Positions 30,226-52,040 of a stretch of 64,000 bases of DNA are shown here, one piece after another. Below the pieces are notes generated by a model. The model was not told where the DNA came from, ran no database searches, and saw only the letters and a program-made list of their open reading frames with translations. The translations under genes were made by a program, and so were the position numbers. Source of the DNA: an uncultured Chloroflexia bacterium (GTDB lineage: Bacteria; Chloroflexota; Chloroflexia; QHBQ01; JADMIH01); NCBI GenBank assembly GCA_963797095.1, contig CAWCNY010000005.1, positions 1 through 64,000 of the forward strand, read 5' to 3'. Every line of letters starts with the position of its first letter. Position 1 is the stretch's first letter.

Positions 30226-31398
30226 ATGAGAACTGCAAGGCTCGCCAACCTCGATTTCCCTCTCCTCTTCTGTACTGTGGCCGCCACCATAGTGGGTGTG
30301 CTCATGGTGTTCAGTGCCACAGCCGGTTCGCGCACAGGCAGCGCGCTCACTCTAGATGACTTCGCTGTCAGGCAGGCTATATTCGGCGTCATTGGCCTGG
30401 TGCTCCTGATAATTCTTGCCCGAATCGATTACCGGTTCTTCGAGAGCTTCACCCTACCGTTCTACCTGGTAACCGTTGGCTTGCTGGGCCTTGTTATGCT
30501 GATGGGCGTCATTAACTTCGGCTCTCAGCGCTGGTTGAACATCGGCCTGATCCCTATCCAGCCCAGCGAGCTTGCCAAGCTAAGTCTGATCGTGATGCTC
30601 GCCAAGCTCCTCTGCGACCGGGAGCGCGAGCTAAACAAAATCAAGTGGTTCATTGCGGCGGCGGCTCTTACTCTCATACCGGCGGTGATCGTCTTCGCAC
30701 AGCCCGACCTCGGCACGACCATCATCCTCTGCGTGATCTTCCTCGGCCTAACCGTTGCAGCCGGTGTCTCATGGCGCATCTTCGCCCTGGTCTCTGCGCT
30801 GACCGTCCCCGCCGCCTATGCCTTCTGGACCTGGATCATCCACGATTATCAGCGTGAGCGCCTCCTTATCTTCCTCCATCCTGAGAGCGACCCCAGCGGC
30901 GCTGGCTACAATATTATCCAGGCACGCATTACTGCCGGTTCAGGCGGCCTGCTCGGTCAGGGCTACATGAACGGCTCACAAAGCCAGCTTGCCTTTATCA
31001 AAGTTCAGTACAGCGACTTCATCTTCTCGGTGGTGGCCGAGCAATTCGGGTTCATCGGCTCGGTAGCTCTCATCCTCCTCCTGTTCATCATTGTTTGGAG
31101 GTGCATCGTAGTGGCCTCACGCGCCCCCAATCTCATGGGCAGTCTGATCGCGGTCGGCGTAGCCACATGGATCGGCATGCAGATCTTCATAAATGTCGGC
31201 ATGAACATTGGCCTTATGCCGGTCACCGGCATTCCCCTCCCATTCATAAGCTATGGAGGTTCCTCGCTGATGAGCATTCTATTGGCGTTAGGGCTGGTAC
31301 AGAGCGTGGCCGCCCAATCCTCTACAGTAGTATTCGGCGGCAGCCTGGTGTCGCCCGGTTGGGCGCGCGCCGGTAGAACCACGCTAAGGCCCAGATAG
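30226..31398 (+). CDS. rodA: rod shape-determining protein RodA (SEDS family)
   Basis: GSQRWL, IQPSELAK, QPDLGT, YQRERL, GYNIIQ, DFIFSVVAEQFG, TGIPLPFISYGGSS. Confidence 0.88.
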   Translation: MRTARLANLDFPLLFCTVAATIVGVLMVFSATAGSRTGSALTLDDFAVRQAIFGVIGLVLLIILARIDYRFFESFTLPFYLVTVGLLGLVMLMGVINFGSQRWLNIGLIPIQPSELAKLSLIVMLAKLLCDRERELNKIKWFIAAAALTLIPAVIVFAQPDLGTTIILCVIFLGLTVAAGVSWRIFALVSALTVPAAYAFWTWIIHDYQRERLLIFLHPESDPSGAGYNIIQARITAGSGGLLGQGYMNGSQSQLAFIKVQYSDFIFSVVAEQFGFIGSVALILLLFIIVWRCIVVASRAPNLMGSLIAVGVATWIGMQIFINVGMNIGLMPVTGIPLPFISYGGSSLMSILLALGLVQSVAAQSSTVVFGGSLVSPGWARAGRTTLRPR

Positions 31399-41173: not shown

Positions 41174-41396
41174 TAGTGGCGCCATCTGGTTAGGATTATT
41201 GGCCCACGGCCATACGGCCAACAGCCAATGCAGCCCCCAGTATACTGGCTCTGTCTAGCCCTCAGTCACTGCTTGCCCCCGATTTTGAATTGCCTCAAAA
41301 AGGTTGCACGGAACGTGGAAAAGAACAGACACGTTCCGTGCAGCCTCTATAATGTGTAAGCATCTCACGCCCAGCATCGTGTTTGCACCTACCTCC

Positions 41397-41840
41397 ATGA
41401 GTGCCGCCATCAAAACCAACCGCACACGAAAGCTGTCCGTATCAGCGCCCGCCCTCTGGCTTGTGCTGGGGCTGGCCGCAGCCTTCTTCATGGTAAGATA
41501 CGGGCAGGAAGTCCTGATGGAGCACGACTTGAACGCGCAGGTCCTGGTCCAGGAGCGGCAGAACAAGCAAATGGATGACGAGAACCATCGCCTCCAGGCC
41601 GCCCTGGAATATTACCAATCGGACAAATACATAGAACAGCGCGCCCGCGAAGATCTCAACCTGCGCAGGCCCGACGAAGAGGTGCTCATCCCAGTAGGCG
41701 ATACCGTCGGTCAAACCCAACCCGACTCTCAACAAGGGTCCGCCACCGCCGAAAACAACACGCAGCAAAGTAGCCCGACAGACAACTCCCCCAACTGGGA
41801 AAGATGGTTCGAGCTATTCAGTCCATTTGAGCAACCCTAG
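41397..41840 (+). CDS. septum formation initiator (FtsB/DivIC-like) protein
   Basis: single TM, coiled coil, YIEQRAREDLNLRRPDE; start uncertain. Confidence 0.8.
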   Translation: MSAAIKTNRTRKLSVSAPALWLVLGLAAAFFMVRYGQEVLMEHDLNAQVLVQERQNKQMDDENHRLQAALEYYQSDKYIEQRAREDLNLRRPDEEVLIPVGDTVGQTQPDSQQGSATAENNTQQSSPTDNSPNWERWFELFSPFEQP

Positions 41841-42004: not shown

Positions 42005-43570
42005 CTATCTGACAGCGCTAAGTATCGTGATACCCGGCGTGAGAGCGTTAGGCCCACTGTATGATGAATTTAGAATTTGTACTACGTATTGATCATCAAA
42101 TGTCGCCGTGAACGCCGCGCCGGTATCGAGCCTGTAGGCCAGCATAAGCGAGTGGTTGCCTACGAACCGCCCGCCTTTTTGTACAATGGCGAAGCCCGTC
42201 AAGCCGGCATTTATCTGCCTTGCTTCGCCTTCCACCGCAGTGCCGTCCGTCTTTATCTCCCATACGGCATATTGACTGGTAGATGGATTGTGGAAGAAGA
42301 TATGGGTGTCGTCTATATACGAGATGGCTCTCCAATGGCGGTCTGCCCCAGCCCTGACCCTTTCGGTGACTGGTACCATGTTGGTCAGGTTGCCACTGCT
42401 GTCTACAACGGCGGTCATGTAATGCACGAAGTTATCTATCCGCCCATCGTCCAGGAAGAAGAAGATGTGGCCGTTGTACCCGCCGACGACATCCGCGTAA
42501 GGCACCCCCAGAGTCTTCGTTACAGGCGGCCCAACAATACCATTCACATCAATAGGAACCGCATCCAACACTTTGGTGGAACTGTCGAACAACTCTATCC
42601 AGTTGCCACCTGGAGAGGTCACACTGGTGCGACCCGCGCGGCAGAGAAATTGGGTAAGTTGATTGAATGATCCATCGGGGTTAAGTTGCGCTGTATCACA
42701 CAGACCCGACTGCTTGTAGACATCGAGATACCCGCCCTCGGTTGATGCGACGTGCGTCCAGCCCGACGAGTTGAGATTGAAGGTTGGTTGTTTGAAAAGG
42801 GTCCCCTCCTGGTCTATTATGTAAGGTTGCCCCGTTCCAGCACCGTTGAGCAGGAGAACTTGGCCCGTCGGTTCGACCGGCTTGGGAGTTGGGGTCGCAG
42901 TTGGGCCAATTGTAGGCGTCGGCTGGGGGGTCCCTCCGTGCCTCTTGTTGAAGTAAAAGACACCAAGCAGAGACAACAGCACCTCGTTGGGGGTGTTGGC
43001 AAACTCGGGGTGGAACTCGAACACCGCCCTCTCGAAGTACTGGACGGTATAGGTCTTGCCATCGGTGTCGCTCACCTCCGAAAACTCATCGGAAATAGGG
43101 AAGCCTTGCTGTGCGAGGCCACCATGCTCTTCCCAATACTTTCGGAACGCCCCTCCAATCGTCTTACCTGTCTCGGTGAACTTGCGGGGGTTGGTGGTGC
43201 TGGCTTGCTGGTTAGGAGCGTTGCCTGCATACTTCTCATTGGAATAGAAGACGCCCAGAAGGGAGAGAAGAACGTTGAAGGGTGGCTGGTTTTCGGGGTG
43301 CAACTCGAAGACGGCGCGCTCGAAATATTGCATTGTATAGGTCTTGCCATCGGTGTCCGACTGCTCCTGGAGCTCTTCTGAGATGGGGAAGCCTTGCTGG
43401 GCCAGCCCGCCGTGCGTGTTCCAGTAAGTGAGGAACAGACCCTTCACCGTATGTCCGGTTTCGGGGAAAAAGCGCGTGTCGTCGGCTTTCGCCACGCCCC
43501 CGGCCGCTGGAAAGGTGGCAACGGCCAATGCCATAATCGCCAGCACAAAAGACCATCTTTGCTTGATCAT
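42005..43570 (-). CDS. secreted protein with two FPETG-type repeats and a beta-rich C-terminal domain
   Basis: signal peptide; FFPETGH..YW..GGL..GFPISE..QYFERAVFE x2; PT linker. Confidence 0.8.
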   Translation of the reverse strand: MIKQRWSFVLAIMALAVATFPAAGGVAKADDTRFFPETGHTVKGLFLTYWNTHGGLAQQGFPISEELQEQSDTDGKTYTMQYFERAVFELHPENQPPFNVLLSLLGVFYSNEKYAGNAPNQQASTTNPRKFTETGKTIGGAFRKYWEEHGGLAQQGFPISDEFSEVSDTDGKTYTVQYFERAVFEFHPEFANTPNEVLLSLLGVFYFNKRHGGTPQPTPTIGPTATPTPKPVEPTGQVLLLNGAGTGQPYIIDQEGTLFKQPTFNLNSSGWTHVASTEGGYLDVYKQSGLCDTAQLNPDGSFNQLTQFLCRAGRTSVTSPGGNWIELFDSSTKVLDAVPIDVNGIVGPPVTKTLGVPYADVVGGYNGHIFFFLDDGRIDNFVHYMTAVVDSSGNLTNMVPVTERVRAGADRHWRAISYIDDTHIFFHNPSTSQYAVWEIKTDGTAVEGEARQINAGLTGFAIVQKGGRFVGNHSLMLAYRLDTGAAFTATFDDQYVVQILNSSYSGPNALTPGITILSAVR

Positions 43571-43672: not shown

Positions 43673-43701
43673 ATAGTAGCAGAAATACCACCCCAAGTCA
43701 A
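43673..43701 (-). promoter_or_regulatory. sigma70-like promoter for the 43570 gene
   Basis: TTGACT(43701-43696)-17-TACTAT(43678-43673). Confidence 0.65.
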
Positions 43702-43715
43702 TCCATTCGTGAACG

Positions 43716-45204
43716 GTAAATGTCCAGAGTTGCGGTGGGGCAATTTCCACGATATTGTATGAGGCATGAGCTGGGAAGAAGAAGTAATGGCTTTGCGGGC
43801 TGAAGTAGTCATCCTCAAAGAGCAGCTTGCCCAAGCATTGGCTGCGAACAGCCAGTTGCAGGCACAACTAGACAAGTACCGAAGCGAACCACCCTCTTTC
43901 GTCAAGCCCAACACTGCCAAGTCCAAAGACCAGGCTAACTCCGAGAAGAAACCACGCCGCAAACGAGCCAAAGACCAAAATGGTGCCAGGCGTAGAGAGC
44001 AAACGCCTACCCAAACGGTGCAGCACCACATAGAGATGTGCCCTGACTGTGGATATGGACTAAGCCAGCCCCAACTGGCCTCCGGCTCCAGACGCCAGGT
44101 GATAGAACTCCCTCCTCCCCTTCCTGTAGAAGTCACCGAGCACCAGTTGTTCAAGAGTTGGTGCGCCCGATGCTCCAAATGGCATTATCCTCCACTCGAT
44201 TTGAGCGCTCAGGGGGAGGTGATTGGACAAAGCAGAATGGGGATACGCATCGCCTCCCTGATAGCTTACTTACGCACCACCCTGAGAATGCCGGTGCGTC
44301 TGATTAGAGAATACCTGCACATCGTGCACAACTTGCTCATCTCTACAGGTGAGATTGCGGACCTGCTGCACCGAGTGGCCGAGGCAGAGAAGGTGAGAAA
44401 AGCAGCACAAGATATCAAAGAGGGGATAAGACAGAGCAGTGTGGTGCATGGGGACGAGACAGGGTGGCGAGAAGGTGGGCAGAATGGCTATATCTGGTGC
44501 TTCTGCACGCCCCATGGTGAGCGATACTACGAGTATGACCACAGTCGGGGAGGAGCAGTGGCCAGGCGCATCCTCGGCTCACAGTTCAAGGGTACACTGG
44601 TCACCGACTTCTACGCGGCACACAATGAATTCCCAGGAGAACACCAACGATGCTGGGTGCATCTGCTGAGGGACTTACACGAGTTGAAGGAAGAGCACAA
44701 AGGGAATGAAGAAGTGGTGGAGTGGGCCAAAGGGGTGCGGGTTCTGTATGACACAGCCCAAGAGTGCCTGCATTCCCCCTGTTCAGAGCATGGTCCACCA
44801 AGCCAACAAGAGAGAGAAGTGTTGTACATACAGCTAATGGAAGGTGTGAGAGAGTTGGGAGGTAAGTACGCCTCAGCCAAGCCTCACAAGGAGCACCCAT
44901 GCCACACACTATGCAAGAGGCTGCTTCGCCACCAGGACGAGCTATTCCGCTTCGTACTACAAAGTGGCCTCTCGGCGGACAACAACCTGGCGGAGAGGAG
45001 TGTGCGGGCGGTGGTGGTGATGCGCAAGGTGTCGGGAGGGTCGCAATCAGCAAGGGGGAGTGCCACACGCATGAGGCTGGCTACATTGTTCGGCACCTGG
45101 CGAGCCAAGGGTCTCAACCCCTTCTTTGAGTGTTTCACCCTCCTCTCTCAACCCCAACCCCAGCCCCAACCCCAGCCCCTCACACCCTAATTCTGAACGC
45201 TATC
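43716..45204 (+). mobile_element. IS66-family element, single ORF (ISBst12-like)
   Basis: imperfect IRs gtaaatgtccagagttg / taattctgaacgctatc; direct repeat tcgtgaacgg at 43707-43716 and 45203-45212 contains the target duplication. Confidence 0.85.
43766..45190 (+). CDS. IS66-family transposase
   Basis: coiled coil, CPDCG, HGDETGWR, LVTDFY, QRCWVHLLR, DNNLAERSVR. Confidence 0.94.
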   Translation: MSWEEEVMALRAEVVILKEQLAQALAANSQLQAQLDKYRSEPPSFVKPNTAKSKDQANSEKKPRRKRAKDQNGARRREQTPTQTVQHHIEMCPDCGYGLSQPQLASGSRRQVIELPPPLPVEVTEHQLFKSWCARCSKWHYPPLDLSAQGEVIGQSRMGIRIASLIAYLRTTLRMPVRLIREYLHIVHNLLISTGEIADLLHRVAEAEKVRKAAQDIKEGIRQSSVVHGDETGWREGGQNGYIWCFCTPHGERYYEYDHSRGGAVARRILGSQFKGTLVTDFYAAHNEFPGEHQRCWVHLLRDLHELKEEHKGNEEVVEWAKGVRVLYDTAQECLHSPCSEHGPPSQQEREVLYIQLMEGVRELGGKYASAKPHKEHPCHTLCKRLLRHQDELFRFVLQSGLSADNNLAERSVRAVVVMRKVSGGSQSARGSATRMRLATLFGTWRAKGLNPFFECFTLLSQPQPQPQPQPLTP

Positions 45205-45215
45205 GTGAACGGAAG

Positions 45216-45401
45216 CAGGCTCTATTCAAAGTCAGGAAGATGCTGGTTGCAAGAGAGCTAACTACGCCTTGTCATTCTTCGCTGCGCGAAGAATTTGAGA
45301 TATCAGGCATGGCACCAAGCTGGGCATCTCAGATTCTGAGCGCAGCGAAGAATGACATACCCCAACTTGGCACTGCATTCCCCGACTCTGAATAGACCCT
45401 G
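45216..45401. mobile_element. non-autonomous element bounded by ISAs1-type ends
   Basis: caggctctattcaaagtcagg / cccgactctgaatagaccctg match each other (18/21) and the ISAs1 end ctgactttgaatagaccctg at 48891-48910. Confidence 0.75.
45270..45357. repeat. inverted REP pair (REPIN-like), GTCATYCTGAGC..GCGAAG type
   Basis: tgtcattcttcgctgcgc / gcgcagcgaagaatgaca perfect 18-bp IR; related single copy at 62442. Confidence 0.7.
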
Positions 45402-45417
45402 TCCGGCGCGCGTTTGC

Positions 45418-45446
45418 TTGACACCACTCCTCTGGTGTGGTACAAT
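45418..45446 (+). promoter_or_regulatory. sigma70 promoter of tRNA-fMet
   Basis: TTGACA-17-TACAAT with extended TG. Confidence 0.85.
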
Positions 45447-45457
45447 CATTAAGTTGA

Positions 45458-45532
45458 CGCGGGGTGGAGCAGTGGAAGCTCGTTGGGCTCATAACCCAAA
45501 GGTCGTAGGTTCGAATCCTACCCCCGCTACCA
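45458..45532 (+). tRNA. initiator tRNA-Met (CAT)
   Basis: cloverleaf, C1 mismatch, GGG/CCC in the anticodon stem, GGTTCGAATCC, encoded CCA. Confidence 0.97.
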
Positions 45533-45535
45533 TTC

Positions 45536-45563
45536 GAGGAACCTCCAGGAGGTTCCTCTTTTT
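45536..45563 (+). terminator. intrinsic terminator
   Basis: gaggaacctcc-a-ggaggttcctc followed by ttttt. Confidence 0.85.
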
Positions 45564-45743
45564 GTTATCTCCCACCTGCTGTATACTATTGACATCTAAC
45601 ATGGCGTGGCCTGGAACAGACTGCCTCCCGGTGCACCCAAATGGTAGTTTCAAGTTCTGCTTCAACAGTCAGGCATTGAACTTCGCGGATTGCATGTAAC
45701 CGGCCTGCCAACATTAAAAACTCTTCGTACACAGGAGACCTTA

Positions 45744-47558
45744 ATGGAAACCAAAACCATACCGACACGGGCCGAAGTGCCGGCGGCATACAAGTGGGAC
45801 CTCGAAGTAATATTCCCACAGGACACTCAATGGGAAGACGAGTTCAGCCAGGTAAGCCCATTGGTGGACCAATTGAAAGCCTTCCAGGGACGCCTCGGAG
45901 AAAGCGCTGATACCCTCCTTGCCGCCCTCAAACTACGCGACGACATCAGCCACAGGCTTGAAAGGCTTTTTGCGTACGCCCGCATGCGGCGCGACGAGGA
46001 CAACACTAGAGCCCACTATCAGGCACTGGAGGACAGGGCACGCGCCCTCTATACTCGCGTTGAAGAGGCTTCGTCCTTCTTCAACCCTGAGATGCTCGAA
46101 GTCGGGCAAGACAAGGTTATGCAGTTCGCCGCCACCAACGACGACTTGAAGGTATACGAGCATCTTCTGGACGATCTCTTCCGCGAAAAAGAGCACATGC
46201 TGAGCGCCCCCGAAGAGGCTTTGCTTGCCGGTGCGAGCGAAGTAGCGGCAGGCCCTTCGCAAATCTTCGACATGCTGAACGATGCCGACATGACCTTCGG
46301 CGAGATCGAAGACGAAGAAGGTAGCAAGGTTCCCCTGAGCCAGGGCCGCTACTTGCGATACATCCTTTCCTCCAATCGCCAGGTGCGCCGCAACGCCTTC
46401 CTCAAGTTCCATGAGGCTTATCACCACAACCGCAACACCATCGCGGCCTGCTATTCCACCCAGGTGAAAGCCGACATCTTCTACTCCCGCGCGCGCAAGT
46501 ACGGCTCTTCCCTCGAAGCCGCTCTGTTCAGGGACAACATCCCCGCGAGTGTGTACGATAACCTCATCGGAGCCGTGCACAACAGGATGGACCTCCTCTA
46601 CAGGTATTTGGAGCTTCGCAAGCGCACGCTGGGTCTGGATGAGCTCCACATGTACGACCTGCATGTGCCGCTCGTTCCCGAAGCCGAAAGTGAGTTTCCA
46701 TTCGACCGCTCGGCACGAATAGTGGAGGAAGCGGTCGCGCCCCTTGGTGAAAAATATCAGGCTGCCGTCAAAGAGGGCTTCACCTCGCGCTGGTCAGACG
46801 TCTATGAAACCGTGGGCAAGACTTCGGGCGCTTACAGTTGGGGCGTTTATGGAACCCACCCCGTGATGCTGCTCAACCATCAGGACACCTTGCGCGATGT
46901 CTTCACCCTGGCTCACGAAACCGGCCACTCCATCCACACCTACTACACCTTCAAGAATCAGCCCTACGTTTATGGCAACTACACCCTCTTCGTGGCCGAG
47001 GTGGCATCTACTCTCAACGAGGAACTTCTCACCGACTACCTGCTAAAAAGCTCGAACGACAGGGACGTAAAACTGGCCGTGGTAAACCACAGCTTGGAAC
47101 AATTCAGGACCACCCTCTACAGGCAGACCATGTTCGCCGAGTTCGAGAAGATCGCACACGAACGCGCTGAAGGGGGCGAAGCGCTAACCGCCGACCTCCT
47201 CTCCGAGATCCACTACGACCTGAACAAGCTATATCACGGCGACGGTGTAAACGTGGACTCGGAGGTCGCGATTGAATGGGCAAGAATCCCCCACTTCTAT
47301 CGCAGCTTCTACGTCTACAAGTATGCCACAGGCATCTCGGCAGCGGTCGCCTTGTCTCAGCAGATCCTGACTGAGGGACAGCCTGCCGTGGACAGGTACT
47401 TGCAGTTCCTGAGCAAGGGCAGCAGCATGTACTCGATAGACCTCCTGCGCGATGCAGGCGTCGATATGTCCACCCCCGACCCGGTAAACCGGGCTCTCAG
47501 CAGCTTTGAGAAGCGCCTGGACGAAATGGAGCAGCTGCTCGGCATAACCGTAAGCTAA
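45744..47558 (+). CDS. pepF: oligoendopeptidase F
   Basis: YKWDL, GKTSGAYS, TLAHETGHSIH, FVAEVAST, WARIPHFY..YVYKYATG. Confidence 0.95.
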   Translation: METKTIPTRAEVPAAYKWDLEVIFPQDTQWEDEFSQVSPLVDQLKAFQGRLGESADTLLAALKLRDDISHRLERLFAYARMRRDEDNTRAHYQALEDRARALYTRVEEASSFFNPEMLEVGQDKVMQFAATNDDLKVYEHLLDDLFREKEHMLSAPEEALLAGASEVAAGPSQIFDMLNDADMTFGEIEDEEGSKVPLSQGRYLRYILSSNRQVRRNAFLKFHEAYHHNRNTIAACYSTQVKADIFYSRARKYGSSLEAALFRDNIPASVYDNLIGAVHNRMDLLYRYLELRKRTLGLDELHMYDLHVPLVPEAESEFPFDRSARIVEEAVAPLGEKYQAAVKEGFTSRWSDVYETVGKTSGAYSWGVYGTHPVMLLNHQDTLRDVFTLAHETGHSIHTYYTFKNQPYVYGNYTLFVAEVASTLNEELLTDYLLKSSNDRDVKLAVVNHSLEQFRTTLYRQTMFAEFEKIAHERAEGGEALTADLLSEIHYDLNKLYHGDGVNVDSEVAIEWARIPHFYRSFYVYKYATGISAAVALSQQILTEGQPAVDRYLQFLSKGSSMYSIDLLRDAGVDMSTPDPVNRALSSFEKRLDEMEQLLGITVS

Positions 47559-47639
47559 CGCCCACAGGCCAACGAAACCGGAGTATGCCTCACCCCTGAT
47601 CGCAAACTCGCCGGTACATGACCCGTTTCCAATTTCCAA

Positions 47640-47680
47640 AACAGAGAGGAATGGCAATATATTCTCCATTCCTCTCTGTT
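47640..47680. terminator. 15-bp stem-loop downstream of pepF
   Basis: aacagagaggaatgg / ccattcctctctgtt. Confidence 0.5.
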
Positions 47681-47847
47681 CGTGAACTTCCCTCGCATTC
47701 CGGCCAACCCAGTGACTCCCGTGGCCTACCTGACAAAATCGAGCGCGATCCATTTCAACTGCACTTCAGCATGACCATTCGTAGGATCAAATCGTAATTG
47801 CGCCAGCGGCCCGCTAAGTTCGTCAAATGTGATGAAAGTCCAATAGA

Positions 47848-48910
47848 CATGGGTGCCGCCGGCTAGGCTTTACTCGCCCCAAATCCCCTAGCCAGTCCAC
47901 CATACATCGCATCTTTTTCGGAGTGGATGCGCAGGTGCTTGAGGCTAAACTGACACAGTGGGCTGAAGCAGTGCTCATGGCTTTGCGAACAAGGGTCGCC
48001 CAAGAGGGAGAAGGTCTGGAATGGGTAGAGTGGGAGGCAGTTGCTGTTGATGGGAAAAGTCCAAGAGGTTCTCGTAAGCAGGGAGATGCCAATGCCCATC
48101 TGCTGAGCGCCCTCAGCCAGAGTATAGGATTGGTGTTGGGGCAGGTAGCCGTGGACGACAAGACCAACGAAATCAATGCTATGCTTGACCTACTCGCTGC
48201 CCTGGTGCTGCGTGGCAAAGTGATTACGGGCGACGCCTTGCTCACTCAGCATAAGATAGCCAAGCAGATTGTAGAACATGGAGGTGATTACCTGCTGGTG
48301 GTCAAGGACAACCAGCCGTTGTTGCGAGAGGATATAGAGGCGGTGTTTGAAGCTCCCCACATGTTGGACCTGACCCCGCAGGACTTATCCCGCAGGAGTT
48401 ATCTTCCGAACGCTGTGCGCGAGAGGTGAGCATGCATGGTAATCGCATAGAAGAGCGAGTGCTGCGTCGCTCCACTGCTCTGGTTGATTGCTACAGCAGC
48501 CTGAGCCTCGCAGGTGGGGAGGAGTTGTGGGCGGGCTTGGGGCAGGTGTTACAAATAAAGCGCACCATCACCGACAAGCGCACGGGGCGTACAACCACAG
48601 AAGTGGCCCATGCCATCACCTCCCTCTCACCGCAGCGTGCGACTCCTGCTCAGTTGCTGAGAGCCTGGAGAGAACACTGGCATATAGAGAACAAGCTTCA
48701 CTGGGTGCGAGATGTGACCTTTGATGAGGACCGCTCAACTGTGCGTGCGGGGAGCATACCTCAGGTGATGGCAGCTTTGCGCAATCTTGCCATCAGTTTG
48801 TTGCGCCTCCTCGGAGCCCTAACATAGCCAAAGCTTGCCGCTTTTGTGCTGCTCGTCCTGCTCAGGTGCTGGCTGCCCTTGGCTGCCTTTCTGACTTTGA
48901 ATAGACCCTG
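47848..48910 (+). mobile_element. ISAs1-family remnant, 5'-truncated and frameshifted
   Basis: [29 protein letters not shown]; second frame HGNRIEER, HWHIENKLHWVRDVTFDED, LRNLAI; right end ctgactttgaatagaccctg. Confidence 0.88.
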
Positions 48911-48927
48911 CCCCCGCCGCATCCGCC

Positions 48928-48956
48928 TTGCGCTTTCCTACCCGATCTGATATAAT
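48928..48956 (+). promoter_or_regulatory. sigma70 promoter of rpsT
   Basis: TTGCGC-17-TATAAT with extended TG. Confidence 0.7.
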
Positions 48957-49072
48957 CAACTTTGCGGTCCAAAACAGGACCGAAATTAGATTGCCCAACT
49001 TGAAGCCGGCGTATGCGTCGGCAATCATTCATACAAAGCACGCAGAGTATCATTACCGGAGGAAAGACTCAC

Positions 49073-49336
49073 TTGGCGAACATCAAATCCGCACTCAAAA
49101 GAATACGCTCCTCGGCGCGCAAACGGGCGCGCAACAAGCCTGTACGCTCCGCCCTCAAGACCTATGTAAAGTCCGCCCAGATGCAAATCGCTGCCGGCAG
49201 CGACGAATCGCCTCAGGCCGTCGTACTCGCCATCAGCGCCCTAGACAAGGCCGCCAGCAAGGGCATAATCCACAAGAACCAGGCCGCCCGCCGCAAGGCA
49301 CGCCTCATGGCAAAGCTCAACAACGCGGTACAATAA
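49073..49336 (+). CDS. rpsT: 30S ribosomal protein S20
   Basis: TTG start after ggagg; [30 protein letters not shown]. Confidence 0.97.
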
Positions 49337-50329: not shown

Positions 50330-51352
50330 CTACCCGCACATCTCCACCACCAGCGCGTCCAGCGACAACTCAGCGTCTGCCTTCCCGGTCTTCACCCCGT
50401 GGTCAAGCACCAGTAGCTTGCGGTGTATCTCCAGCAACTTCTTCATATCGAACTGCCGCGCCTGTCCCACCGCCTTGCGCACAGTAAAATCACTCAATCC
50501 CGACCTCTCGGCCATCCTCCCCTCTGACACCCGCTGGTCAAGCATATCGCGCACCTGGATCAACGTCCGTATCTGCCAGGCCAGCACCGGCAATATCCCC
50601 TCAGGCGACGTTCCCCCGTCCACCAGTCGCTGCAACTGCGCCAATGCCCCCCGTGTATCCCTTCGAGCAGCCGCCGAAGTCATCTCAAACACATCGTCCG
50701 CCTTCGATACCCAGCTCATCTTCTGCAATACCTTCTCGTCAACCGTCCCGCCCTTCCCCACATACAGCGACAACTTCTCAAGCTCATTCGTCAGTGCCGC
50801 CAGGTCCCCGATGGACGCCCCCAACAGCGACAACGCCCCAGGAGTCACCCGCATCCCCAACGCTCGTGCCCGCTCGCCTATCCACCGCTCAAGCGCCGCC
50901 CCCTTCGGTGTAATATGCTCCTCCACCTTCCCGTACCGGGTCGCCGCCTTCAACAAGGCGCTGTTCTTCGCTACCGCCCATCGTTCAACCAATATCAGAA
51001 TCGTGGTATCGGGAACCGAACCAAACACAGACGCGAATCCCTCGGTCAAGCCGGGGTCGGCCTTCCCCCTGCCCCTTGCAGGCGCACCGGCCGTCTCGCC
51101 TCCGTCACCGTCCCCTCCCCTGCTCCCCGCGAACCTCGTCAACAAACCATCGACAACCACCACCCGCCTATCCCCGAAAAACCCATAAGCCTGCACTGCC
51201 CGCGCCAGCTCGTCAGGCAACAGCCGCGCGCCATCCATCCTGGTCATATTCAGGTCGCCAAACCCATCATCCTCAGGCTTATACTTCGCCAGGTAATTTT
51301 GCAGACTCTGCCCAACCAGATAGCGGTCAGGCCCAACAAGCGCGATCAACAT
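50330..51352 (-). CDS. holA: DNA polymerase III subunit delta
   Basis: FFGDRRVVVV, NELEKLSLY, VF, DHGVKTG; near rpsT. Confidence 0.9.
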   Translation of the reverse strand: MLIALVGPDRYLVGQSLQNYLAKYKPEDDGFGDLNMTRMDGARLLPDELARAVQAYGFFGDRRVVVVDGLLTRFAGSRGGDGDGGETAGAPARGRGKADPGLTEGFASVFGSVPDTTILILVERWAVAKNSALLKAATRYGKVEEHITPKGAALERWIGERARALGMRVTPGALSLLGASIGDLAALTNELEKLSLYVGKGGTVDEKVLQKMSWVSKADDVFEMTSAAARRDTRGALAQLQRLVDGGTSPEGILPVLAWQIRTLIQVRDMLDQRVSEGRMAERSGLSDFTVRKAVGQARQFDMKKLLEIHRKLLVLDHGVKTGKADAELSLDALVVEMCG

Positions 51353-51663: not shown

Positions 51664-52040
51664 GCAACCCGCGCAATCGTCCAGGGCGGATGCAAAGTCA
51701 GGCGTCAATGCGAAGTTAGCTGGTTGGGCAACCGTGACCGGCATATTGCCAGGTCCGGCTAGGCGTCAATGGCAAGAGCTACTTTCTCGGAAAGGGTTCC
51801 AGCGACCATAATTGCGGGTTCGTGCCTGACTTTGCATCCGCCCTGCGCAATCGTCCCGAATCTCCACCTTCCATACACGTCTTTTGACCTGGATATATAC
51901 CTCCCTCACGCATAATATGAATTGGTGGAGGCTCTCTCGCGGGATCTTCACACAAGGCCAACCTACCGGTGTTGACCACCAACAGTTGACAACTAACGCC
52001 GTTGCCATCGCTAGCTCCCAAACAAAGGAGGAACACCAGC

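Follow-up and report, generated by a model that had tools for sequence, protein, structure and literature searches.

The TnGBS, ISLre2 and ISKra4 groups of mobile elements, all of them with Mutator-like transposases, are found inserted 15-17 bp ahead of the -35 box at sigmaA promoters, and no local motif marks the site (PMC3942029). The authors propose a contact with the transcription initiation complex, as yet unproven, link the orientation of the insertions to the asymmetry of the terminal repeats and cite Brochet 2009 and Guerillot 2013 for the promoter insertion of TnGBS and ISLre2. Here we describe a similar relation between element ends and promoters in 64,000 nucleotides of the genome of an uncultured Chloroflexia bacterium (GenBank assembly GCA_963797095.1, contig CAWCNY010000005.1, positions 1 to 64,000), a stretch called the window in the following. 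An earlier reading of this DNA, made from the sequence alone, had noticed three ends of the type found in ISAs1-family insertion sequences just upstream of predicted promoters and had named the fixed-distance insertion at sigmaA promoters of ISLre2/TnGBS as a precedent, which PMC3942029 confirms. We consider it very probable that the fixed-distance promoter targeting is real, and we find that a second element of the window, a member of the IS66 family, follows a similar rule with a distance of its own.

The 18-letter pattern of the ISAs1-type end matches the window exactly three times, at 45216-45233 on the minus strand and at 45384-45401 and 48893-48910 on the plus strand, compared with 0.10 matches expected in a shuffled window; a fourth match at 30373 with three mismatches was taken as chance. 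From the end at 45401, 16 nt (45402-45417) lead to TTGACA (45418-45423), followed after a 17-nt spacer by TACAAT (45441-45446) with TGG before the -10 box. From the end at 48910, 17 nt (48911-48927) lead to TTGCGC (48928-48933) and, again after 17 nt, to TATAAT (48951-48956) with TGA before it. The end at 45216 faces the minus strand, and when the IS66-family element (43716-45204) and its direct repeat are removed, it lies 18 nt from TTGACT (43701-43696), which is followed after a 17-nt spacer by TACTAT (43678-43673) upstream of the open reading frame (ORF) starting at 43570. These are the three distances and the spacers given by the sequence-only reading, and all of them proved correct when the sequence was read again. 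The intervening bases had also been described as lacking a common motif, and over 30 promoter-facing ends the relative entropy at flank positions 1-17 is indeed at most 0.4 bit.

All promoters in this work were called from the sequence, using a simple -35/-10 matrix of our own with a threshold of 8 bits, the frequencies of which derive from E. coli compilations. The end pattern occurs exactly seven times in this genome and is found in 10 of 61 related genomes, namely this one and 9 of 25 of the same genus, and in 0 of 35 outside the genus. A scan of metagenomes for such ends gave 99 stretches, 80 of which became loci. There were 157 raw ends, six with too short flanks, and 129 distinct junctions after removal of identical or near-identical flanks; the related genomes are in fragments, and even with deduplicated flanks close relatives do not count as fully independent. 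By inward DNA similarity to the transposase or by a partner repeat the ends were typed as 26 right, 19 left, 38 belonging to short non-autonomous derivatives (miniature inverted-repeat transposable elements, MITEs) and 46 unverified.

Among the distinct ends from the same genus, 20 of 37 score at least 8 at offsets 15-19, compared with 0.44-0.54% of random positions of this genome (binomial 7e-36); the window end at 45216, whose flank is interrupted by the IS66-family element, is outside these 20. The mode lies at 17 nt, with the offsets 15, 16, 17, 18 and 19 seen 2, 4, 12, 4 and 2 times. Verified metagenome ends score in 10 of 59 cases, all at offsets 16-19 (binomial 1e-12), and the unverified ones, which may include chance 18-mers, in 4 of 33. 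Since the enrichment is present in this wider sample of same-genus and metagenome ends, chance is excluded. Pooling gives 30 scoring ends out of 96, with a distance of 17.2 +/- 0.9 nt, a spacer of 17 nt in 23 and of 18 nt in 7, and a TGn extension in 20 of the 30. Either end of the element can face a promoter (left 3/19, right 6/26). Exact duplications of 8-10 bp flank 10 of the 18 complete elements, and one more carries a duplication with a single mismatch; at least one scoring promoter-facing end is present in 10 of the 18 and in 6 of the 7 from the same genus.

Throughout this genome 1205 of 29375 TTGACA-like hexamers (4.1%) have a -10 box 16-18 nt further on. At the element ends this is the case for 14 of 21 such hexamers and at the ends of other ISAs1 lineages for 10 of 10, and the extended -10 motif is most frequent at 40-41 nt from the end. 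The target is thus a bipartite promoter and not just TTGACA. The sequence-only reading had suggested looking at further ends genome-wide for promoters in the outward direction, and the enrichment described above is what such a search yields; the claim drawn from three ends, that the element inserts upstream of sigma70-type promoters at a set distance and needs no local motif, now rests on 20 of 37 ends, on a bipartite target and on a core promoter that stays intact.

Insertions within genes are expected to be purged and most of the surviving ends are intergenic, as would be seen if insertion were random and only copies in harmless spots just upstream of promoters survived selection. We regard this as very improbable, because any position upstream of a promoter would be equally harmless, so that selection cannot yield a spread of 0.9 bp. 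Forty other offsets of the same-genus flanks gave only six hits in all, a control that is fairer than the random positions, which are mostly coding DNA, and the IS66-family element is found at exactly 14 nt in 15 junctions. An IS256-like element present in five copies in the same genome shows no preferred offset: 2 of its 10 flanks score, at offsets 19 and 5, with no common register. These IS256-like copies (1325 bp, near-identical; C2:788113, C2:947864, C2:1275670, C2:593339 and C3:587534) each contain one in-frame TAG inside the transposase match, which may be a shared defect, recoding or a mis-set frame.

Many insertion sequences create hybrid promoters, and the promoters could in principle have been made or activated by the element end instead of being targets that existed before. 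This is hardly credible here: neither hexamer includes any base of the element or of the duplication, copies have different flanks, and lineages with different terminal sequences share the geometry. In addition sister species have the same promoters at loci that lack the element. G017 and G025 carry the rpsT promoter, TTGCGC-17-TATAAT, but not the element beside it, and G017, G015 and G004 carry the tRNA-fMet promoter, as TTGACA-17-TACAAT or TATAAT, but not the MITE. Conservation at these element-free loci shows that the promoters pre-date the insertions. The comparison covers these two promoters; the gene behind the third one belongs to a paralogous family with 17-28 matches per genome.

The IS66-family element, which the sequence-only reading had removed to obtain the third distance, is more than an interloper: it is itself targeted to promoters, in one orientation and with its own 14-nt rule, and it has struck the same promoter as the MITE end next to it. 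Its left end lies 14 nt from the promoter at 43673-43701. The element is bordered by a direct repeat (43708-43715 and 45205-45212) matching in 7 of 8 bp, and perfect 8-bp repeats are found in three of four copies. There are four near-identical and four 71%-identical copies in this genome, the other near-identical ones at C5:739408-740905, C6:789929-791414 and C2:802908-804393. A -35 box is found 14-15 nt away from 7 of 8 left ends in this genome and from 0 of 5 right ends. Of the 30 distinct left-end junctions in the genus 16 score, with offsets of 13 nt (4) and 14 nt (15) and a binomial probability of 4e-28; one of the 14 non-scoring junctions comes from the unpublished genome G022, without which the count is 16 of 29.

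The ORF of this element matches PF03050 and PF13005 and reaches 263.9 bits with NF033517, for which the cut-off is 180. Canonical IS66 elements carry the accessory ORFs tnpA and tnpB. Here a single 474-aa ORF is found in 1489 bp, and we take the element to belong to the single-ORF subgroup of IS66, the ISBst12-like group. In one sister species (G004, C13 ~48887-49035) this IS66-family element is inserted 14 nt upstream of the same tRNA-fMet promoter that carries the ISAs1-type MITE at 16 nt in the window. Thus this promoter has been struck independently in two species by two different elements, and two unrelated elements have both struck the promoter at 43673-43701, one at 18 nt and the other at 14 nt.

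The ISAs1-type ends belong to an ISAs1-family insertion sequence and to MITEs moved by its transposase. An intact copy of the element was found in a sister species (L002) and none in this genome; it measures 1320 bp, has identical 18-bp ends and contains one transposase ORF of 410 aa. This ORF reaches 242.5 bits with the ISAs1 model NF033564 (cut-off 70) and contains PF13808 (1.4e-18), an N-terminal DDE_Tnp_1-associated domain, and PF01609 (1e-17), the catalytic domain DDE_Tnp_1. Homologues with E <=1e-10 were found in 5426 of 8000 scored candidates and, where named, are called 'transposase YbfD/YdcC' or 'ISAs1 family transposase'. A search of the PDB by sequence gave nothing meaningful, no chain being matched; an AlphaFold model of the transposase (pLDDT 75.4) has its best PDB matches among Tn5 transposase chains (E 1.4e-7, TMq 0.43-0.46). 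ISAs1 elements are typically about 1.2-1.5 kb long with one ORF and short terminal inverted repeats starting with CAGGG, and they duplicate 8-10 bp of target. With 1320 bp and 18-bp ends the element conforms to this description in size and ends, and its relatives of 1179-1409 bp start with CAGG or TAGG. The window copy at 47879-48910 is 71% identical to L002 over 1035 columns in blastn and 72-81% identical at the amino-acid level in three frames in tblastn, and PF01609 is present on both of its ORF pieces.

The 186-bp MITE of the window is non-coding and resembles the full element only in its termini of about 20 bp. It lacks the target duplication expected of a MITE, since its two flanks, GAACGGAAG and TCCGGCGCG, differ. 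The only match for a duplication partner elsewhere in the genome (C6:863427) lies inside a coding gene and was dismissed as chance. In G017 and G015 the gene directly upstream of the tRNA is the orthologue of the window gene at ~41386-41830, and compared with these genomes the window holds an extra 3.5 kb consisting of a 521-aa gene, the IS66-family element and the MITE. Because of this break in synteny and the missing duplication, the two ends of the MITE probably stem from separate events that were joined by recombination. A related MITE at C2:372037-372163 is flanked by a 9-bp duplication. Another, at C4:643890-~644005, is 98.6% identical to one arm of the window MITE and is truncated 4 nt into the other inverted repeat; there is no promoter at its intact end. 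A degenerate ISAs1-like end with three mismatches and an identical continuation of 70 nt occurs five times (C1:61335, C1:571660, C3:45940, C3:562277 and C5:169926) and is probably an old end now enclosed in a different repeat.

This genome also holds two more ISAs1 lineages, type A and type B, with 32-40% identity in protein. In all four full-length copies of these types a 10-bp duplication is present, and one end lies about 19 nt from a -35 box. The type A ends, mostly of MITEs, score in 14 of 35 unique flanks (18 nt, 7; 19 nt, 7; 20 nt, 2) and the type B ends in 3 of 4. A type A MITE at 51682-51845 lies in the window: from its minus-side end 18 nt lead to TTGACT (51663-51658) and, after another 17 nt, to TATTGT (51640-51635). 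This predicted promoter points towards the ORF 50330-51352, with a leader of about 280 nt in between, for which Rfam gave no match. A profile-based scan of species genomes gave 79 loci, 37 of them with inverted repeat and duplication, and a wider set of 50 elements was anchored on CAGG- or TAGG-type ends, 34 of them with a duplication. Duplication-bearing elements with one or both flanks scoring at offsets 16-20 are 6 of 9 from Chloroflexota, 8 of 11 from Poribacteria and the single one from Blastocatellia (a metagenome-assembled genome of Acidobacteriota). In a quick tree every hit falls within one clade of 23 rows (support 99), apart from the actinobacterial rows. Relatives were also found in 734 plasmid records; 12 loci were examined, with nine different elements from Proteobacteria and Cyanobacteria, the four ISKpn31 loci being one identical insertion beside ISKpn6.

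A staggered cut of 9-10 bp accompanies insertion, and its promoter-proximal edge lies 15-19 bp (mode 17) upstream of a sigma70-type -35 hexamer; judged from the duplication of 9-10 bp and the 17 nt to the -35 box, the duplicated target would occupy about -52 to -43 in textbook numbering. The C-terminal domains of the alpha subunits of RNA polymerase bind around -52 to -43, just upstream of sigma region 4. Insertion leaves the core promoter untouched, together with about 17 native bases ahead of it. Autonomous copies and MITEs share the rule, which ISAs1 elements follow in both orientations and the IS66-family element in one. We infer that RNA polymerase may well be the ruler. The distance would then be measured from a promoter occupied by the holoenzyme and not from the sequence at the insertion point, be it by contact with sigma region 4, by contact with the alpha C-terminal domains or through a distortion of the DNA induced by the enzyme. 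This suggestion is based on three observations, namely that a signal 40 bp from the cut is required, that weak -35 boxes are tolerated and that three unrelated transposase families converge. When a complex between the transposase and region 4 of the principal sigma factor (residues 436-519) was predicted, the score was 0.00 in two runs made without controls.

It is rather unlikely, in our estimation, that the transposase or its N-terminal DNA-binding domain reads the promoter DNA itself, that is the -35 hexamer and perhaps more, and cuts at a fixed distance without RNA polymerase. TTGACA-like hexamers do dominate at offsets 16-19 (21 of 96 ends), and the distance to the -35 box (standard deviation 0.91) is no looser than that to the -10 box (0.99), but direct reading would have to explain why the requirement extends to a -10 box some 40 bp away from the cut, seen far above background, why TGn is so frequent and why TAGCAA, TTGCGC, TTGTGC and similar weak -35 boxes suffice. 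Moreover three unrelated transposase folds would each need a sigma-like reading of the same bipartite signal. Clear cases of a target that truly lacks a -35 box yet has an extended -10 box at the right distance number 2-3 among 39, and this rarity keeps some room for a direct reading of the -35 DNA.

That rarity is one of several points that weigh against promoter targeting by way of the holoenzyme. All promoter calls rest on a matrix with E. coli frequencies, and the role of RNA polymerase is inferred. The low rate among metagenome ends counts against the rule, as do the 8 of 18 complete elements that have no scoring promoter at either end. A forward ORF is found downstream in 24 of 27 hits, hardly above the 22 of 32 non-hits, in a test that discriminates poorly in a GC-rich genome. 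None of 13 ISAs1 elements from Actinomycetota with clean duplications scores, in a comparison where host and clade are confounded and the matrix fits actinobacterial promoters poorly. On the plasmids 3 of 9 elements have inverted repeat and duplication, and no -35-like box is seen at 16-20 nt in flanks read by eye without the matrix. Promoter targeting hence belongs to a large part of the ISAs1 family, not demonstrably to all of it.

The features of the window are collected in the table below. The 521-aa ORF 42005-43570 (minus strand) has a signal-peptide-like start and no Pfam match, and it belongs to a large paralogous family that gives 23 DNA matches here, the sister genomes having 17-28 apiece. 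The true start of S20 is probably the TTG at 49073 (followed by ANIKSA), as the Pfam match begins at residue 22 of the ATG-started ORF; a start at this TTG gives a leader of about 110 nt after the promoter.

Table. Elements, predicted promoters and neighboring genes in the window
Feature	Position	Strand	Remarks
Predicted sigma70-type promoter of ORF 42005-43570	43673..43701	-	called from sequence only; 18 nt from MITE end (IS66-family element removed), 14 nt from left end of IS66-family element
IS66-family insertion sequence, 1489 bp	43716..45204	+	single ORF 43766-45190 (474 aa); boundaries from three other copies in the genome
MITE-like ISAs1-family derivative, 186 bp	45216..45401		inverted ends 45216-45233 and 45384-45401; no target duplication
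tRNA-fMet promoter (predicted), TTGACA-17-TACAAT, TGn	45418..45446	+	16 nt from MITE end; present without MITE in G017, G015, G004
tRNA-Met (anticodon CAT)	45458..45532	+	ARAGORN; Rfam RF00005, 65.7 bits
ISAs1-family copy, 5'-truncated and frameshifted	47879..48910	+	corresponds to positions 305-1320 of the 1320-bp element; right inverted repeat 48893-48910
rpsT promoter (predicted), TTGCGC-17-TATAAT, TGn	48928..48956	+	17 nt from element end; hexamers kept without element in G017, G025
Ribosomal protein S20 gene	49013..49336	+	PF01649 covers residues 22-103 of 107-aa ORF
Type A MITE, 164 bp	51682..51845		perfect 10-bp duplication 51672-51681 and 51846-51855

A literature search, which left subscription journals, ISfinder/TnPedia and supplements outside, returned no report of promoter targeting for ISAs1 or IS66. 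In the parts covered PMC9208149 gives only gross neighborhood biases for ISAs1, and PMC3281130 and PMC8024623 do not mention promoter targeting by ISAs1 or IS66 elements. Fixed-distance promoter targeting would thus have been known before only from the Mutator-like group, to which ISAs1 and IS66 would add, as far as sequence comparison tells, two further unrelated families. In this Chloroflexota genus both kinds of elements coexist and strike the same promoters, the one at 43673-43701 and that of tRNA-fMet. With somewhat less than even confidence we propose that the zone about 10-15 bp upstream of the -35 box at a polymerase-occupied promoter is a general docking site exploited independently by at least three unrelated DDE superfamilies, that is by the Mutator-like ISLre2/ISKra4, the Tn5-like ISAs1 and IS66. 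If this is true, the transposases carry separate solutions to the reading of a bound holoenzyme, and element ends are natural markers of active promoters in phyla without transcription-start data.

What leads a transposase to a promoter is still unsettled mechanistically, and the question has so far rested on one superfamily, TnGBS/ISLre2/ISKra4; the two new families offer independent systems for testing RNA polymerase as the ruler. Their convergence is an argument for seeing the target as something that the promoter complex itself provides. Hardly any promoter mapping exists for Chloroflexota and Poribacteria, and there the natural insertion sites, hundreds of them, mark where promoters lie; the targeting also explains the pile-up of elements and MITEs between genes, beside tRNA and ribosomal-protein genes. 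Compact single-protein elements that integrate beside genes without breaking them are also of interest for bacterial safe-harbor insertion tools.

Of the described systems Tn5 and the IS4 family provide the closest solved fold, a DDE core with an inserted beta-strand domain, and they make staggered target cuts of the 9-bp class, the target preference of Tn5 being weak. The ISAs1 transposase differs from them in having no PDB match at the sequence level and in its N-terminal PF13808 domain. The second element resembles the IS66 family in its match to NF033517, in PF03050 with a zinc-finger domain and in its 8-bp duplications, and it differs from canonical members in lacking the accessory tnpA/tnpB. 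With TnGBS and ISLre2, as described in PMC3942029, the ISAs1 elements share a fixed distance, here 15-19 nt with a mode of 17 (18-19 nt in the other lineages), and the absence of a local motif. They do not belong to that group, as their transposase has PF13808 and PF01609 and a Tn5-like and not a Mutator-like (p-MULT) fold; TnGBS inserts in one orientation and the ISAs1 elements in both, and the modal distance is 16 for TnGBS/ISLre2 compared with 17-19 nt here. The ISKra4 group (p-MULT 4; ISKra2, 4, 5 and 6), which according to PMC3942029 has promoters on either side and nearly perfect inverted repeats, comes closer in this respect, since the ISAs1 ends are identical 18-mers and either end faces promoters, but it too has a Mutator-like transposase and is a family separate from ISAs1 and IS66. 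The yeast element Ty3, an analogy drawn in PMC3942029, likewise has its integration site set by a bound transcription initiation complex and not by sequence; as a eukaryotic retroelement with an integrase and Pol III factors it is comparable by analogy only.

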